Positions 10,175 to 31,735 of a stretch of DNA of 64,000 nucleotides are shown here, piece after piece. Where the stretch lies: positions 64,001 through 128,000 of the forward strand of contig CBDCEW010000105.1 of assembly GCA_965215885.1 (NCBI GenBank), written 5' to 3'. Origin of the DNA: Candidatus Moanibacter sp. (GTDB taxonomy: Bacteria > Verrucomicrobiota > Verrucomicrobiia > Opitutales > UBA2987). The first letter of the stretch is position 1. The number at the start of each line of letters is the position of its first letter. The position numbers and the translations under genes are program-made. A model generated the notes under the pieces. The model was not told where the DNA came from. It searched no databases and was given only the letters and a program-made list of their open reading frames with translations.

Positions 10175-11001
10175 AGAAACATCTACTGAGTTCGAAGCAG
10201 ATGGCCCGATTCGTCGCATCCGGCTATCTCAAGTTCGACAAAATGGTATCCAGGAAGTTGTGTGCGGTCGCCCTGGAGGAGATGAAGAATCGGAAACGGG
10301 GATTTTACGCCGTCGGGACTCCCTTTGAAGAGACTTGGCCAAAGGGCACGGCCCTCGGCGATATCTTCCGACTGCCAAAGGTTAAGGGACTGATCCACTC
10401 CCTCGTCGGTCCCGATCCACTTTACGACCATCACGCCGCTCATTTCGTGGCTGCGAAGAAAATGGCGGGGCCGAACACCCATCAGGACTCCGTGATCGAT
10501 TTTCGCGAGAACTACTTCGATATACAGCTGTCCCTGTTTCCTGCCGACACTCCTGACGAGATGGGCGGCACTTTTCTGATTCCGGGCACGCAGTTTCGCA
10601 ATGTGCGTACCGGGGAGATCACCTTTTACCAGCATATGCGAGGCAAGATCTGGGCCTCCTGCAAGGCAGGAACAATGTTTGTGTGGAATACCCGCGTCTG
10701 GCACGGCGCTCGCAGCAATCACACCGACCGGGACCGCTTCATGTACAAGCTGCGTCTGAATCCGACGCTCCCCCAGATTCGAAATTTCGACACTTCTGAT
10801 CTGGATGACCCGGAGATCCCGGGAATTCTGTCCACAAAACACGGATGGGAGGGGAACGAGCACCGCTACGAGACTATGCGTCGCGTGCGCCTGTGGCGCT
10901 ACGTTTCGGGGCAGCCGGATTTCGACATCGGCGAGCGGTTTCTGCGGCGCATCGAGTACCTTCCTACCCGGGAGGGCAAACAGGCAGCATTGGCTACGTA
11001 A
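10171..11001 (+). CDS. PhyH-family dioxygenase (paralogue of 32035-32865)
   Basis: MKKHLLSSKQMARFVASGYL, HQD, GGTFLIPGT, WHGARSN...R. Confidence 0.9.
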   Translation: MKKHLLSSKQMARFVASGYLKFDKMVSRKLCAVALEEMKNRKRGFYAVGTPFEETWPKGTALGDIFRLPKVKGLIHSLVGPDPLYDHHAAHFVAAKKMAGPNTHQDSVIDFRENYFDIQLSLFPADTPDEMGGTFLIPGTQFRNVRTGEITFYQHMRGKIWASCKAGTMFVWNTRVWHGARSNHTDRDRFMYKLRLNPTLPQIRNFDTSDLDDPEIPGILSTKHGWEGNEHRYETMRRVRLWRYVSGQPDFDIGERFLRRIEYLPTREGKQAALAT

Positions 11002-11460
11002 AATCCACGGTGATTTCGAATTCCCAAAAAAATCCGGTTCGGCTCTTAGGTGTACTGATTGGTTCGGGGTTGGCACAGCGGACCGGGGGAGATTGAAAAC
11101 CGCGCATAAACTCGAATGTACGCGAATTCCCGAAGCCGAATGGACTTTTCTGTTCTCATCCGGCAGCAAGATTGGAATACCGAACGCTAATCACACCCAG
11201 ACCTTTCGTATTACAAATTCGCCTGCGGTGAGCCTCGCCGGATCCGTTGAGAATCCCTCTTCATAAAATCCGCGGTTTTTCCTGGCTCGCCGCAGTGCAG
11301 CGAAGACCGCTCGAATCCGTGGTGCCTTCCTCTTTATTCGCGTTCATTTGCGTCCATCTGCGGTTCTCTTCTTCTTTTTTGGTTGCGGCTACGCTGCGTT
11401 GGGTTCATTGACGTTCAGTCGCGGTTCAATGAATTCTCTTTCCCCAACGTCGAAATCACG

Positions 11461-11489
11461 CGCTTGTCGCTTGCATTGCCTTGTTAACT
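11461..11489 (-). other. Left half (R''-L'') of an attC site, truncated
   Basis: Minus strand GCAGTTAAC-AAGGCAATGCAAGCG overlaps the gene stop and is complementary to the cassette start GTTAACTGC. Confidence 0.65.
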
Positions 11490-11851
11490 GCTTGATTTTC
11501 GATACTGCAAAAATACTTTGATTCCTCTTGCTGACAAACCAGAAACCAGTGGGATTATGCAAAGAAATATACTGGTGAATAGCAGTAATATTGCCCAAGC
11601 TTTGGCTTCGCTGCTTCCAAAAACATATGCATATGCATTCTGACCTAGATACAACCCAAAACAACGACAAGGAGTTTCTTGTAGTTTGCAATGAAACCGA
11701 TATACGCAGCAAAAACCGCCATTATTACTTGCCCTATCAAGAATCCAGTACCTGTATCAAATGGCTCAAAGCGATCCGATACCAAGGGACAAATAGCCCA
11801 ACTCAGGCATCCCAAAATAAAGCCTGCGAAAAATACTGCTTTTCTATTCAT
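11484..11851 (-). CDS. AT-rich multi-TM membrane protein, gene-cassette ORF (frameshift ~11650)
   Basis: MNRKAVFFAGFILG... continues as YLGQNAYAYVFG...QYRKSSS* in the shifted frame. Bounded by GTTAACT and an attC half. Confidence 0.65.
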
Positions 11852-11858
11852 CTCATGC

Positions 11859-11947
11859 AGTTAACGCCAGTGCTATCCCGCTCGAAGATCATGTCGTCAA
11901 GGTTAGAAGCAACGGAACCGACGAATCTCTAACGGCTGTTCCTTACA
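11859..11947 (-). promoter_or_regulatory. attI-like/promoter leader, copy 1
   Basis: Shares ~75 bp with 30383-30458. TTGACG-17bp-GATAGC promoter-like motif, ending in the core site GTTAACT. Confidence 0.6.
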
Positions 11948-12196
11948 GCAGATTAACGGGAAAGGTTGATCGAATTTGAAAGACGGCGCCCGGGATCTAC
12001 AGGATCACAAGAGATCTCGATCTGGCGAGATTGAAAAAGGTCGGTTGATTGCTCCACGACCCGGCGAAAATGCGGAGATTCTTCGCGGACAACCCGGAGG
12101 GGTTCTTCCAGGTATTCAACGCCTACCGGCCCGGAGTTTTACCGAATCGGTGGAGCTTAGAGTTGCGATCGAGGGATTTTTTCATAGAAAGATCAA

Positions 12197-13087
12197 ATGA
12201 CACCATTCGTCGAGTCCAACGACATCAGAGAGGACACTGATGCACTGCGTCACCGCGCCGATCGCGACGGCTACCTCTTCCTGAAGGCTGTCGTCAACAA
12301 GGATGCCATCCTCGAAGCGCGCCGAGACATCGCCGCAACCCTGCAGGACGTCGGCTGGATCGACCCCGGCACCAATCAGGATGACGCCATAACGAGCCAC
12401 CCCGCGCTGGTTTCCGGCATGGAGGATTTCAAACCGGTTTATGACGCCGTCCAGAAGCTCGAATCATTCCACACCCTCGCCCATGACCCTGTGCTCCTCC
12501 ATGTCACAGAAGCTCTTCTCGGCGACGACGTGCTACTTCAGCCCAGCAACATCGCGCGTTTCATCTTTCCCACCAATCTCGACGAAACCACTCCGCCGCA
12601 CCAGGATTATGTGCACATCCAGGGCACCCCGGATGTCTGGACGGCGTGGTTCCCGTTGGGTGATTGTCCTGCGAAAATGGGCGGATTGAGCCTGTTGTCC
12701 GGCTCGCATAAATCAGGTATTTTTCCGGTCACGCGGTCCCCAGGCGCCGGCGGACTTCGAAGCGATACCACCGAATTCGGCGGGGAATGGGTCTCGAGCC
12801 CTTTCGAACTCGGGGACGTAATTTTCTTCTACAGCCACACCGTCCACCAGGGCCTCCCGAATCTGTCCGGCAACCGCTTGAGACTCTCCGTCGACTATCG
12901 CTATCAGAGGGCCTCCGATCCCGTCATGAAATTGGTCCTCGGTGTGCACCAGGGCCGGCTTTCATGGGAGGAGGTCTACGCCGGCTGGAAATCCGACAAG
13001 TACCAATACCATTGGAAGAAATTCGATCTGAATCCGGTTTCGAAAAGTCCCTGGCCGGTCGCAGAAGCTGCGGAGCAGGAGATGTAA
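12197..13087 (+). CDS. PhyH-family dioxygenase
   Basis: RDGYLF, TPPHQD, WFPL, GSH, GDVIFF, VHQG..N...RLSVDYRY. Confidence 0.92.
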   Translation: MTPFVESNDIREDTDALRHRADRDGYLFLKAVVNKDAILEARRDIAATLQDVGWIDPGTNQDDAITSHPALVSGMEDFKPVYDAVQKLESFHTLAHDPVLLHVTEALLGDDVLLQPSNIARFIFPTNLDETTPPHQDYVHIQGTPDVWTAWFPLGDCPAKMGGLSLLSGSHKSGIFPVTRSPGAGGLRSDTTEFGGEWVSSPFELGDVIFFYSHTVHQGLPNLSGNRLRLSVDYRYQRASDPVMKLVLGVHQGRLSWEEVYAGWKSDKYQYHWKKFDLNPVSKSPWPVAEAAEQEM

Positions 13088-13347
13088 TTCGCCGCTTTCT
13101 GTCATTGCGAGGCAAAGAATGACGAAGCAATTCCAGATCGTGTTTCAGGCTTCATACCTCCTGGATTGCAGCGCTAACGCGTCGGACTGTAAGCCGGCAC
13201 CCTGGATCTTGGTCTCGGAAGATCAGGCGAGTGGTCGAGCAGAATCACTTGGAAGGGTCCGATTTAAAGGAAAGGATCCTAACAGCTGCAAAACATACAA
13301 ATCGAAAACCTTCCCCTCCGCGATCTCTACGCGCTCTGCGGTTTTTC

Positions 13348-19391: not shown

Positions 19392-22300
19392 AGATTACGA
19401 TTGAGAGTCACGACGGAAGAGCGGAAACCCAATCAATCTTCCGTCGTGCTTCATAATCGTTATCTAAAATCGAAAGAAGAAAGATCGACAGGAGATCACG
19501 ATTAGGAATCACGATAGCAGAACGACAACCAACTTAATCTCCCGTCGTGGATCATAATCGTTATCTAAAATCGAAAGAAGAAAGATCGACAGGAGATCAC
19601 GATTAGGAATCACGATAGCAGAACGACAACCAACTTAATCTTCCGTCGTGTATCATAATCGTAATCTAAAATCGAAAGAAGAGAAGATCGACAGGAGATC
19701 ACGATTAGGAATCACGATAGCAGAACGACAACCAACTTAATCTTCCGTCGTGCATCATAATCGTAATCTCAAGTCGAAGAAGCAGAAGATCGACGGAAGA
19801 TCACGATTGAGAGCCACGATGGCGGAAACAAAATCAATCTTCCGTCGTGCACCATAATCGTTATCTAGACCCCATTCGAAAAGCCTTTCGAGCGGGCGGT
19901 TTAAGGTTCTCCGCCACGGGCGGACCAGCCTATGGCTGGCAGGTTTCGGGTTTTAGGCTGCCGGCGCTGCCGATGAGCAGGTATTGAGCGGCCATCGGCG
20001 TGGCTTGCTGCACAATACGTATATTTGCCGCTGTCTGGAGGCATACTCATCCCGTGGTGCTTTTTTCTCTGAGCTTCAAAGCGGTCAGATTCAGGCTGCC
20101 TGTTCGTATTGGAGTTCCTCCCCTCGGCGTTTCTTCATCAGTATGATGCGGCAGAAGTTGTAGGCCAGAACCTTCTCGAGCAGTTCATCGCCTACCGCAT
20201 CGATGCCGCGGCGGCCGAGTTCGCCAAAGGCAAATCCATCTTTAATCGTGAACATCAGCGACTCCACTGCGGAGCGATCGCGGCGTGCCTCGCGATACGC
20301 CTCGCTCTCCCAGTCCTCGGGGGTGGTCAACTTCTTGCCCTTCGCCCCACTGATACTGATCTGCTTTACCCCCATGCTCAGCACCTCCTTGCGTCCCTTC
20401 GCCGAAGCATATCCGTCATCGGTGCTGACCAGTTCAGCAATGACACCGGTGCGCTTGATCGAATCGCCGATGGCCGGCGCCAGCTCAATGGAGTCTGCCG
20501 CGTTGCCTTGCGGTACGATCAGGCTGGTGACAAAACCGTTTTCGCTGCGAACCAGTTGTGGCTTGTACCCGATCACTGGATTGCGGCTGCCCATTCTTGA
20601 TGTAGGCCGCCGATCCGTCCGAGAGGCACTCAGGACCTTCTGTGTGGACGGTAGCTTCTTTTCGTGAAACACCCGATCATGAGCATACTCAACAACCCGC
20701 TTGGCGTCGGCAATATCGCCCCTGATCTGGCTCAATGCCCGCTCCAGAAGCTCCCGGCGAGTGGGAGGCAGTGAATCCATCGACAGGCCGTCTTCAAGAT
20801 GGCTCAGTTCCCCCGTTAGTGAGTCGGCCGCCTTGCGGCCCCGCTTGAGCAACCGCCGGTAGTGTTTCTTCGAGCTTGCCCTTCGACTTCGGGTTTGCCC
20901 GCGGCCAGACAAATCTGAAACTCACAGCTTGTCCATTTCCTCCAGCCAACGCCCAACCCTGGATCCCTTGCGAAAATCCTCCAGCCCGAAGACATGCAAC
21001 TTCTGACCCAAACGATTGGCCCGCATCAAAAGACCGCTCAGAATCTTCCCATCGGTGGGCCAGCAGCTGTTTGCTTTCACCGAGGTGCTGTCGATCGTCA
21101 GCTTCCCGAAATCGTCCCATTGCTCCTGGAGGATAAACCCAATCTGTTTATCAAAGATCAACTCGCGGGTCGTATAGCTGACCAGGTTCACGTTCTCCAG
21201 AATCGTCGTCACCGCCGGCATTCTCAGTCCCCCGCTCTGCAAAAATCCGTACAAGCTCATCGACTCGCGCACAAACCGCCGTGCCGGTTTCCGTGGTCAA
21301 CGAACCCAGAAACCCTCGAATCATCACGAACCCGTATACCGCATAAGCCGGCATCCGCGGCCGGCCTGCCCTAAGATTCAATTCAGCAGCCAGAATATTC
21401 TCCTCCTCGATGTCCAGCTCCGGCAGCTCCGCTGTGCGCCCTTCAAAGAACCTGCGATCTTCCAATCGAAGTTTCTTCTTCTCACGCGCATGGGCGTCCA
21501 GATCCTTCTCGATCGCCTCGATGATTTGCGCCGCGAACCCGGCCAATTCTTCAACTTCATCCAGAAAATCACGGAAATCCGTGTCTGGAACCGGCAGAAT
21601 GAGGTTGCTAAGGGATCAACGTCTTATCGCTTTTGTTCTCCTCTGTCGCACATGTTGGCATGTTTAACTCCTTTCTTAATCTTAAGTTGTTAAACACTAG
21701 CATGTTGCGACACTTTTTATCAAGCCAAAAAATGATTTTCTCAAGTTTTTCTTGCGCCTTTTGCGCCTCTTTGCGGCCAATCAGTAGCTTTTCGGATAAG
21801 GTCTATCTAAAATCGAAAGAAGAAAGATCGACAGAAGATCACGATTAGGACTCCCGATGGAAGAACGACAACCAACTTAATCTCCCGTCGTGGATCATAA
21901 TCGTTATCTAAATTCGAAAGAAGAGAAGATCGACAAGAGATCACGATTAGAAATCACGATAGCAGAACGACAATCAACTTAATCTTCCGTCGTGTATCAT
22001 AATCGTAATCTAAAATCGAAGAAGAGAAGATCGACAGGAGATCACGATTAGGCATCACGATAGCAGAACGACAACCAACTTAATTTTCCGTCGTGCATCA
22101 TAATCGTTATCTAAATTCGAAAGAAGAGAAGATCGACAGGAGATCACGATTAGGCATCACGATAGCAGAACGACAACCAACTTAATTTCCGTCGTGCACC
22201 ATAATCGTTATCTAAAATCGGAAGAAGAAAGATCGACAGAAGATCACGATTAGGAATCACGATGGAAGAACGACAACCAACTTAATCTCCCGTCGTGGAT

Positions 22301-22635
22301 CATAATCGTTATCTAAAATCGAAAGAAGAAAGATCGACAGGAGATCACGATTATGAATCACGATAGCAGAACGACAACCAACTTAATTTTCCGTCGTGCA
22401 TCATAATCGTAATCTCAAGTCGAAGAAGCAGAAGATCACGATTAGGAATCACGATAGCAGCACGACAACCAACTTAATCTCCCGTCGTGCTTCATAATCG
22501 TTATCTAAAATCGAAAGAAGAAAGATCGACAGGAGATCACGATTATAAATCACGATAGCAGAACGACAACCAACTTAATTTTCCGTCGTGCATCATAATC
22601 GTAATCTAAAATCGAAGAAGAGAAGATCGACAGGA
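19392..22635. repeat. Tandem array of ~101-bp hairpin units (~13 units) interrupted by an IS at 19868-21803
   Basis: Unit starts at 19435, 19536, 19637, 19739, 19836, 21879, 21981, 22082, 22184, 22284, 22385, ~22476 and 22577. Confidence 0.92.
19868..21803 (-). mobile_element. IS5/ISNCY-like IS, copy 1 (transposase frameshifted)
   Basis: IRs GACCCCATTCGAAAAGC / GACCTTATCCGAAAAGC, TATCTA direct repeats, near-identical to 33400-35316. Confidence 0.9.
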
Positions 22636-27440: not shown

Positions 27441-27644
27441 CTAACGGATACTACTGTTAGGTCTGATCGATTTTGATCGACCTATAGCGAGCCTGCCGGC
27501 GATTCCCATCGTTTGAGAAACGGTGTGCGCTTGTTGCCGCAATCCGCGCGCGCCGGCGCGCGGATCGACTACTTCCGCATTTAGAGTCAACCACCACCCG
27601 AGTAACCATGTATGCAAGATGATCGATCTATGAATGGAATTCAT
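27441..27644 (-). CDS. Short cassette ORF, probably truncated
   Basis: Follows attC R' GTTCTGC and an RBS (AGGA). Ends at ACCTAAC-10bp-GTTAGTG. Confidence 0.35.
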   Translation of the reverse strand: MNSIHRSIILHTWLLGWWLTLNAEVVDPRAGARGLRQQAHTVSQTMGIAGRLAIGRSKSIRPNSSIR

Positions 27645-27658
27645 TTCCTATCTCGCTC

Positions 27659-27722
27659 GCAGAACGATGAAGCTCAGCCGCCGGACGCGTCAAAGGACGG
27701 ACGGCTGCAGCGGGTGTTAGGT
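27659..27722 (-). other. Integron attC site (64 bp)
   Basis: Minus strand: ACCTAAC ACCCG CTGCAGCCG...CGGCTGAG CTTCATC GTTCTGC. Confidence 0.85.
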
Positions 27723-27777
27723 CGCCACACGGGCACTATATTTTCTTCGAGATTGCAATGTAGCATAGCCTACTGTT

Positions 27778-29619
<1,842 letters not shown>

Positions 29620-29654
29620 ATTGTCTTTCCTCAAATTGTTTGGTGATTGAGGCG

Positions 29655-29783
29655 AGCTAACGCACCAGATCTGTGGCGCAACCAAAGATCGGCGATGCTG
29701 TTCAGATAGCCATGCGGTTCAAATCGCCGAAAACCAGAAATCGGTACACGCGTGGTTGCGTCCACTGAATTAGATTGTTAGAC
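29655..29783 (-). other. Integron attC site (129 bp)
   Basis: Minus strand: GTCTAAC AATCT AATTCAGTGG ACGCAACCA...TGGTTGCG CCACAGAT CTGGTGC GTTAGCT. The upstream gene stop lies in R''. Confidence 0.8.
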
Positions 29784-30335
29784 ATCAGTTCGTTGAGACC
29801 ATCTTGTTTGACTAAAGATAAAATGTTGATCAGCATGCGCAACGACATCAGGCGTTGCACGGTATCCGCGTAACCATAGCCCGTCCTCGAGTCGTCTCAG
29901 ATAAAAACCGTTCGGAAAGCCTTCCTCTTTCGATATCTTCTTCGACGCTATTATAATCGCACCTGACCCCGGTATGTTTGCCTTGTCGGAATGACACCCT
30001 TGGGGCTGATCAAAATACTGCAATCTCAAGTGAGGCCCGAGTTCAAGCGGGCACAGCTCGAGACCCAGTTCGATCGCTCTTTCGAAGTTCTGAGCCGCAG
30101 TGGCTCCCTCTGAGAAACCGAGGTCGCGAATTGTCAGTTCAACGGTCTTCAGCTTGTAGGAAGTCTTAGAGGTCGTAAAACGATCATCAGCGAAGAGCCT
30201 TTCTGCAGACACATTCATCGAGATCGCGTTTCTCTGTGATTCTTGCATCAGCTCCGATTTTGTAAGACCGCCCACATCGACCGTTCTCACGATGGTAGGA
30301 CAATCGGGGTAGATATTCTCAGTTTCGAGATGCAT
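29778..30335 (-). CDS. Conserved hypothetical protein (first gene cassette)
   Basis: Intact ORF with AGGAG RBS; motifs LGLELCPLELGPHLRLQY and GFYLRR...WLRGY. Confidence 0.8.
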   Translation of the reverse strand: MHLETENIYPDCPTIVRTVDVGGLTKSELMQESQRNAISMNVSAERLFADDRFTTSKTSYKLKTVELTIRDLGFSEGATAAQNFERAIELGLELCPLELGPHLRLQYFDQPQGCHSDKANIPGSGAIIIASKKISKEEGFPNGFYLRRLEDGLWLRGYRATPDVVAHADQHFIFSQTRWSQRTDV

Positions 30336-30355
30336 TGGGGAGAGTTTCTCCTGAT

Positions 30356-30458
30356 GCCTAACAAGTCAATATCGAGATCTGTACTATCCCGCTGGAGGAT
30401 CATGTCGTCAAGGTTAGATACCGCAGTTACGACGAATCCCTAACAGCTGTTCCTTACA
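30356..30458 (-). promoter_or_regulatory. attI-like/promoter leader, copy 2
   Basis: TTGACG-17bp-GATAGT, ending in the core site GTTAGGC. Homologous to 11859-11947. Confidence 0.6.
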
Positions 30459-30631
30459 ATTGGAATAATAGGAAGTTTCTGTCGTTTCCATGGAAGAGTT
30501 GCCTCCTGGACCCACACCCATAAAATCTTCAGGATCACCTTGAAGAGTCGAGTTCCAACCAGCACACTACCATTGTCAAAAGGGCTGTTGCCCAAAATCC
30601 CTGCCTACGATTAAGCATTCCTCGAAACACG

Positions 30632-31217: not shown

Positions 31218-31735
31218 TAGTAAAGAAACCACGGATCACGGATTGCACGGATAGAGATTGGTATTCAATAAACTGCTGTCGACAAGGTTCGCGACGAGAT
31301 TACACAACGGAAGTAGGAGTTTACTTCTGCATTCGCGTCCATCTGCGTGCATCTGCGGTTCTCTTCTTCTTTTTTGGTTGCGGCTATGCTGCGCTAGGTC
31401 ATCCGTGGTTCTCTCTCTTAGCGATCCTCGATTTTTTATCGTATTCAAATCCAATACCTTATGTGTATCCATGGAGAAAAACTTGCCAAAAAAACAAGAT
31501 TCTGACGGATTGTAATACAAAGCTTTCGGTTTGATTTTTTTGCGCTCTTTGCGTTCTTTTGTGGCCAAACACAGGCTACGCCGAAGACCGATCAATTTTC
31601 CGAATTAGAGCGCGAGGGTTCGCAGAATCCACGGCAGATCGAATGTTGCGGGCGAAAGAAAAACTAACAACCTTAGAACAAATCGCGGTAGCCAACTCGG
31701 ACTAGTGCCGCCGCGAGTAACCGGTAACGTTAGCT

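Follow-up and report, generated by a model that had tools for sequence, protein, structure and literature searches.

The window, by which we mean the whole stretch of 64,000 nucleotides analysed here, carries two copies of a leader sequence on its minus strand: the flagged copy near 11 kb (W1) and a second one near 30 kb (W2). The original prediction, that some 75 bp are conserved at two loci 18 kb apart, is borne out by the alignment of W1 (11870-11947) with W2 (30381-30458), which is 78 bp long and 83% identical (E 8e-17 against the genome of 6.36 Mb). As had also been described, behind each leader stand a GTTRRRY site, with its G at 11865 for W1 and 30362 for W2, and an unrelated gene. The differences between the two copies are unevenly distributed, with 2 mismatches in the 29 positions of the first block and 2 in the 34 of the promoter block against 8 in the 11 of the spacer, and this disparity (4/63 versus 8/11; Fisher p 5e-6) points to constrained motif blocks. 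The minus-strand motif string proposed for the leader holds in its promoter part, since TTGACG-17-GATAGy is present in both copies (11895-11900/11872-11877 in W1, 30406-30411/30383-30388 in W2); the inverted pair GTTAG..TCTAAC forms no hairpin in either (z -0.45 and -0.30), and TCTAAC is not kept across the leader family. A reading of the leader as a hairpin RNA or an attC site was rejected on folds no better than those of shuffled sequences, and an Rfam search over the window returned only two tRNAs. The features of both loci are compiled in Table 1.

Table 1. Features of the W1 and W2 loci (positions in the window).
Feature	Position	Strand	Basis
Leader copy W1, intI-attI intergenic region, attI core missing	11870..11947	-	83% identity to W2; model R1 positions 4-91/116, E 2.5e-7 (W1 belonged to the training set of R1)
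Possible LexA (SOS) box GAAC-N4-GTTA over the divergent integrase promoter	11930..11941	-	Motif in W1 and W2; putative
Predicted cassette promoter Pc of W1, TTGACG-17-GATAGC	11872..11900	-	Motif; block kept at 32/34 positions, W1 vs W2
Junction, short attC-tail-like stretch in place of the attI core, crossover G 11865	11865..11873	-	14 nt shorter; cassette end in run X3
W1 gene cassette, 41% GC, core/inverse core GTTAACTGC/GCAGTTAAC	11448..11865	-	Sequence; 97%-identical copy in run X3
Hydrophobic protein gene, ~122 aa, stop inside R''	11484..11851	-	Frameshifted at ~11657 in this assembly
Short complete attC, 48 bp, R''/L''/L'/R'	11442..11489	-	L-box pairing of the scan; boundary in run X3
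intI start-region remnant, weak, ATG near 30490	30466..30510	+	Profile without window copies, in register; alignment to the C101 copy
Leader copy W2 with predicted Pc, TTGACG-17-GATAGT	30381..30458	-	Alignment, motif, sequence model
attI of W2, crossover G 30362	30356..30380	-	Aligned with AAT[AC]ACTT-GTT of intI-linked relatives
W2 cassette 1: 185-aa ORF (29778-30335) and 129-bp attC (29655-29783)	29655..30362	-	Fold
W2 cassette 2: S9 prolyl oligopeptidase gene and attC (27659-27722)	27659..29661	-	PF00326, E 8e-48
W2 third, truncated cassette-like unit	27456..27665	-	GTTCTGC start, ACCTAAC end

The description of the gene behind W1 as an AT-rich membrane-protein gene bounded by core and inverse core sites stands with respect to composition (the cassette has a GC content of 41%, against 55% for the window) and to its bounds, both of which are perfect, with the stop codon falling within R''. 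The gene is, however, frameshifted in this assembly. Comparison with contigs from four public runs over 10900-13200 revealed that one extra base at 11657 keeps the frame open in runs X2 and X3, and the frameshift is therefore not general. What had been read as half an attC is a complete site. In run X3 a 97%-identical copy of the cassette is joined to other DNA from 11445, the R' core site of the attC. With core and inverse core, an attC comprising L and R boxes (weakly folding, z +0.6) and an occurrence in more than one context, the W1 cassette is a genuine gene cassette. Neither half of its hydrophobic protein has a Pfam match and no family was found for it; the best Atlas score, 0.82, is a lead only. 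Contigs of the RNA library X2 cover the cassette and not the flanking genes, a pattern to be read in the knowledge that the contigs were picked by that stretch and carry no start or strand information. A high-copy dispersed repeat at 11208-11438, also present at ~31300-31400 and very deep in other runs, truncates the W1 array.

Compared with W2 and the rest of the family, W1 is 14 nt shorter before the crossover and its attI core is absent, so that the view of W1 as a working attI platform has to be given up; an intact simple site, composed of L box, 5-bp spacer and R box, was not found there. The leader-cassette junction is bridged without differences by contigs of X2 and X4, and the diverged cassette copy of X3 reaches 11874 and ends there. 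From this end we infer that the nine bases preceding the W1 crossover are an attC tail; the other branch was not seen. A deletion is likely to have joined the promoter to an attC tail, which would leave one cassette still expressed and no proper attI. The promoter scan did not call the Pc of W1, because its -10 element lacks the final T. W1 is thus a degraded member of the leader family and the most worn copy in the window.

The first conserved block of both copies contains GAAC-N4-GTTA, which may be an SOS box of the integrase promoter Pint. A similar element, GAAC-N4-GTTT, is located upstream of this genome's lexA; patterns of the GAAC-N4-GTTA type are not enriched in the window (8 occurrences, 5.9 expected by chance). 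The verrucomicrobial LexA motif is TGTTC-N4-GAACA, with 0 occurrences in the genome. It is established that intI is under the control of LexA (PMC8876359). Separately, recA was not found in the assembly (TIGR02012) though lexA is present, probably as a result of an assembly gap.

At W2 the attI reads ATTGACTT followed by GTT, with two mismatches to the family consensus AAT[AC]ACTT within the 8 bp preceding GTT, and the leader heads at least two full cassettes. The bottom-strand fold of the first attC has a z-score of -2.5, equalled by 5 of 200 shuffles, and the attC of the second, 2-kb cassette forms a stem with two bulged bases whose folding energy does not surpass that of shuffles (z -0.3). 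A heuristic attC scan missed both of these sites and was positive in 26 of 150 random windows; given this insensitivity, the attC calls reported here rest on manual pairing and folds, with the scan as support only. The 185-aa ORF of the first cassette has no Pfam or NCBIfam match and scores 0.96 against unnamed Atlas clusters. The statement that neither upstream region encodes IntI holds insofar as the integrase HMM detects no coding sequence at either locus; at W2, some 45 bp nonetheless resemble an intI start region, a weak match (E 1.7 genome-wide). Two further observations concern the window at large. A GC-rich hairpin starting with GAT rather than GTT lies behind several attI copies (window 27537-27566, C32:7688, C100:117013 and loci of genomes G006 and G301) and is part of a family whose ~165-180-bp units are cassette-like and lack an ORF, and a 101-bp tandem repeat array of ~13 units occupies 19435-19867 and 21804-22635, split by a transposase-bearing insertion.

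On sequence grounds, the repeat is the intI-attI interval, with predicted Pint and Pc and the attI itself, of a widespread family of long-form integron integrases (~430-500 aa, with an N-terminal KWLRYYLDFC domain). This assignment follows from the matches of a profile built on the leaders of this genome, from the attI cores found at intI-linked loci and from the divergence of sequence after GTT. We retrieved 160 loci encoding the long-integrase N-terminus, 96 of them with an intact gene of at least 400 aa, from taxa including Verrucomicrobiota, Lentisphaerae and Desulfobacterales. The own-genome profile matches 22 of the 160, in all cases upstream of intI on the divergent strand, with 7 matches at E<0.005 and a best value of 2.6e-8. 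Among the 106 usable loci (at least 420 bp of flank; 54 were omitted for short flank or no motif call), AAT[AC]ACTTGTT is located 130-403 bp from the N-terminal motif and facing away from intI in 52, against a single instance on the wrong strand; for loci with an intact gene, the figure is 29 of 57. Identical or near-identical leaders (L117/L120 and L123/L124) switch sequence directly after GTT. A broken relative with this N-terminus, in genome G063, matches TIGR02249 in two pieces (E 2.6e-50 and 1.4e-22), each below the whole-protein cut-off of that model. In the reverse direction, a profile derived from foreign intI-linked leaders only detected four copies in this genome (best E 6.5e-5, the others 0.22-2.7) and did not recover W1 or W2, and the family assignment of these two therefore passes through their paralogues.

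The genome (G000; its contigs are cited as C4, C32, C100, C101, C104 and C105) holds more than the two copies first reported. An iterated profile found eight and a weak ninth, and a sequence model returned nine at E<=0.002, eight of the nine being in its training set: W1 and W2 on one contig, three on C100 and the others on C4, C32, C101 and C104. In most copies similarity continues beyond the end of W1 to the G/TT site, and the expectation that the leader would be followed in each case by GTTRRRY and a different cassette was confirmed for W2 and for most of the others, conservation ending at G/TT. By sequence reading, attC-like ends follow W1, W2, C4 and C100:80727, and those following C100:155943 and C100:117004 are degenerate; C101, C104 and C32 showed none. 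At C104:76270-76720, a short same-strand gene, which we take by eye to be TfoX-like, ends just before a short Pc-attI copy and is possibly a delta-attI-type cassette.

Whether one copy abuts intI had been posed as a check. None of the nine adjoins an intact gene, and six bear a trace of one. A divergent reading frame resembling the integrase N-terminus begins upstream of several copies. Coding remnants detected by HMM cover aa 3-53 at C100:80868 and at C101:24992 and the internal aa 267-315 at C100:155711; this internal piece implies a formerly much longer gene in one copy or more. The other three traces consist of the start region only: the weak one at W2, one at C4 (78% identity to C101 over 88 bp), where a 277-bp multi-copy element lies within the leader, and one at C100:119023 (E 6e-7), separated from its own attI by a 1.9-kb IS. 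At W1, C32 and C104, integrase HMM, start-region profile and alignment revealed no trace. A protein search with two of the remnants returned one match. An intact long-form intI of this clade is absent from the assembly (90% complete, 5.47% contamination), and the parent was thus not seen. The left ends of the copies are ragged and differ from copy to copy, and a common left crossover was sought across the copies and not seen.

The only intact integron integrase of the genome, at C100:128287 (432 bits), is of the short type. We rejected the leader as the attI of this enzyme, since the region upstream of it is a different sequence. The attI-bearing part present at a truncated paralogue has no counterpart at the intact gene, the attI of which is hence missing in the assembly. 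A 1.9-kb multi-copy IS at C100:126250-128143, encoding a transposase with a DruA-like N-terminal domain, separates the intact integrase from its array. At C105:327146-327902 lies a frameshifted integrase of a third type; it has a cassette array of its own and, upstream, a perfect GAAC-N4-GTTC.

The array of the intact integrase nevertheless has a link to the leader copies. A 1,050-bp block of two cassettes, encoding an unknown membrane protein and a DUF2513 protein, is present with five substitutions (99.5% identity) at C4:951-2000, where it comes first behind an integrase-less head, and at C100:123658-124707, inside the array of the intact integrase of different type. Its left end is attI followed by GTT at C4 and attC followed by GTT at C100, and its right end also lies at GTT. 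Given the exact G/TT ends and the 99.5% identity, the C4 site recombined within ~0.5% divergence on every route considered. Judged from these junctions, the block shows the C4 head as a recent recombination partner, implying neither the acting enzyme nor the timing relative to intI loss, and at least one head is likely to have taken up cassettes recently. An attI site is held to be specific to the integrase it belongs with (PMC2095811); the non-cognate IntI1, on the other hand, excises cassettes ending in a 244-nt piece of attI2 (PMC12901181). A second candidate for cassette sharing, a 164-bp ORF-less unit (96-97%) common to the solo copy on contig C37 of G301 and the contig of another IntI, was not counted, because its ends do not lie at clear attC junctions. 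No cassette sharing was found in the stretches examined of G006.

Solo heads in several copies recur in three other genomes. A BLAST search of W2 against 40 relatives gave hits in four genomes, all of them chance matches of 19-23 bp. Several strong copies were detected in two of 60 relatives, at least 7 in G006 and at least 15 in G039 (up to 60 candidates were scored per genome, and the copy numbers are minima), and six more genomes gave weak matches only. G039 is a single contig, 94% complete, and contains no integrase over the cut-off. G301, which was reached via its intI locus, carries five copies, one of them beside an intact long-form IntI. On a 40-row tree inferred from an alignment of 111 columns, excluding additional copies of G039 and a partial one of G301, the 13 rows of G039 form one group (99/99), as do the four of G301 (92/94); W1 and W2 are sisters (99/95), and the copies of this genome and of G006 are mixed. 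The grouping by genome indicates that heads multiplied within lineages.

We assign a probability of about 0.78 to the interpretation that the nine copies derive from integrons that multiplied in this lineage and then lost intI by deletion, leaving heads that are predicted to drive cassettes from Pc and intact attI sites that are likely still able to recombine. Long-form integrons would have been duplicated or acquired repeatedly in this lineage and intI deleted afterwards, duplication presumably preceding deletion. As Pc is located between intI and attI, it would survive the loss of intI, and the first cassettes would stay expressed if the predicted promoter is active. Intact attI copies could then be loaded in trans by an integrase encoded elsewhere. 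The proposal of a solo attI+Pc module is accordingly kept in part: the copies are attI/Pc heads, dispersed, away from an intact intI and in most cases fronting cassettes. They are not a separate element, however, but the usual intI-attI stretch of a long-form integron family, and six of the nine bear a trace of intI.

An unlikely alternative, and the one that survives best, is that most copies were never whole integrons, and that delta-attI-type cassettes instead carried copies of Pc-attI as their 3' end, or IntI inserted it at secondary sites, seeding promoter and docking points. The organization of G039 speaks for it. At least 14 near-identical Pc-attI units lie within 37 kb (G039:C1:2859798-2896710; L264-L266), often beside GGGGTCAG/CTGACCCC repeats and in tandem behind attC sites or other heads; the repeated unit, ORF-less or encoding a four-helix-bundle protein (PF05635), ends in Pc-attI in place of attC. 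Such short tandem units without any trace of intI are poorly explained by the decay of whole integrons. The same alternative would accommodate the three own copies without intI trace, and attI2-ended cassettes excised by the non-cognate IntI1 are on record (PMC12901181). Against it stand the internal intI piece (aa 267-315) and the 50-codon N-terminal pieces found beside three own copies, the ragged left ends with no common G/TT crossover, and the retention by W1 and W2 of the Pint-side block, for which a short module would have no need.

It is very improbable that the copies reflect a mixed metagenome bin, in which each would come from a different strain or species with a single integron. Contamination of 5.47% and the less typical tetranucleotide composition of C32 and C101 (ranks 57 and 66 of 78 by distance) would fit such mixing, but W1 and W2 share one contig and three more copies share C100, a 324-bp repeat found throughout the genome has 100%-identical copies on C4, contigs of other runs bridge the W1 junction, and G039 has its 15 copies in a one-contig genome. 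Scarcely tenable and already largely refuted is the notion that a repeated host promoter or IS/MITE end unrelated to attI had cassettes inserted behind it at secondary (attG) sites. Published attG insertion near host promoters (10.1101/2022.09.11.507474) and the lack of a canonical attI at W1 lend it some plausibility. In other genomes, however, this leader adjoins an intact intI, its left ends are ragged with no terminal repeats, fixed ends or hairpin seen, and neither 72,556 plasmid nor 50,697 phage records contain a match. The identity with a known IS or MITE end which the original prediction had named as its refutation was not borne out. Carriage by phage or plasmid was also considered and rejected, none of 22 pattern matches in viral contigs being followed by an attI core.

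Beyond the multiplication of integrons followed by loss of intI, a more far-reaching possibility, which we advance tentatively and would not expect to hold, is that of a distributed integron, in which heads multiply alone as delta-attI-type units, selection maintains them at 7-15 or more places on the chromosome for expression and docking, and one non-cognate IntI that lost its own attI serves them in trans. If so, many arrays tallied as CALINs or SALINs and taken to be promoterless orphans would have a head, from which they could be expressed and still loaded. The intact IntI without attI in the assembly, together with the 99.5%-identical cassette pair it has in common with an integrase-less head, may represent a natural case of trans-acting, cross-type attI use. 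Moreover, a searchable attI/Pc profile for the long-form family makes it testable, genome by genome, whether orphan arrays retain a head, as those described here show they can.

Among the closest known systems are CALINs and SALINs (Cury et al. 2016, PMC4889954; Loot et al., 10.1101/2022.09.11.507474), which likewise comprise attC cassettes with no intI nearby. There is no IntI near W1 or W2, and hence no complete integron at either; W2, with two attC sites established by manual pairing and folding and not by IntegronFinder, corresponds to a CALIN, and W1, with its one attC, to a SALIN. Loss of intI is among the origins listed for such arrays (PMC4889954; 10.1101/2022.09.11.507474), their origin is debated (10.1101/2022.09.11.507474), and ~95% of CALINs are reported to have no recognisable intI pseudogene (PMC4889954). 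Short N-terminal and internal remnants of the kind found here would escape a C-terminal pseudogene search at 50% coverage. The CALIN and SALIN definitions, as given in these sources, ignore attI, which their authors state to be unsearchable in most integrons, whereas here a recognisable Pc-attI head occurs in nine dispersed copies.

The chromosomal integrons of Xanthomonas (10.1101/2025.06.18.660453) share the deletion or truncation of intI with retention of the cassette array, but are described as one ancestral platform at ilvD, in contrast to the many paralogous heads per genome, amplified separately by lineage, reported here. The class 2 head, with Pc2 embedded in attI2 and tail-to-tail with PintI2 (PMC8876359), resembles these heads in having an intergenic Pc that survives loss of the gene; it belongs to a different sequence family, and the present heads differ further in being multi-copy and in having an intI that was deleted instead of stopped. 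The delta-attI-type cassettes that integrons of classes 1 and 2 carry (PMC12901181) also comprise attI pieces (up to 244 nt) located away from intI and recombined, including by a non-cognate integrase. They are described inside the resistance arrays of mobile integrons, whereas W1 and W2 head arrays at separate chromosomal loci and do not have that form, which the tandem units of G039 resemble more closely. From environmental and archaeal DNA, attI sites adjacent to intI are on record (PMC3146285; 10.1101/2022.02.06.479319). We found no account of dispersed multi-copy Pc-attI heads in the integron literature, within a search that covered subscription journals thinly. CALINs and SALINs, the loss of intI and delta-attI cassettes are thus already published, and what is unusual here is the multi-copy, dispersed layout of the heads.
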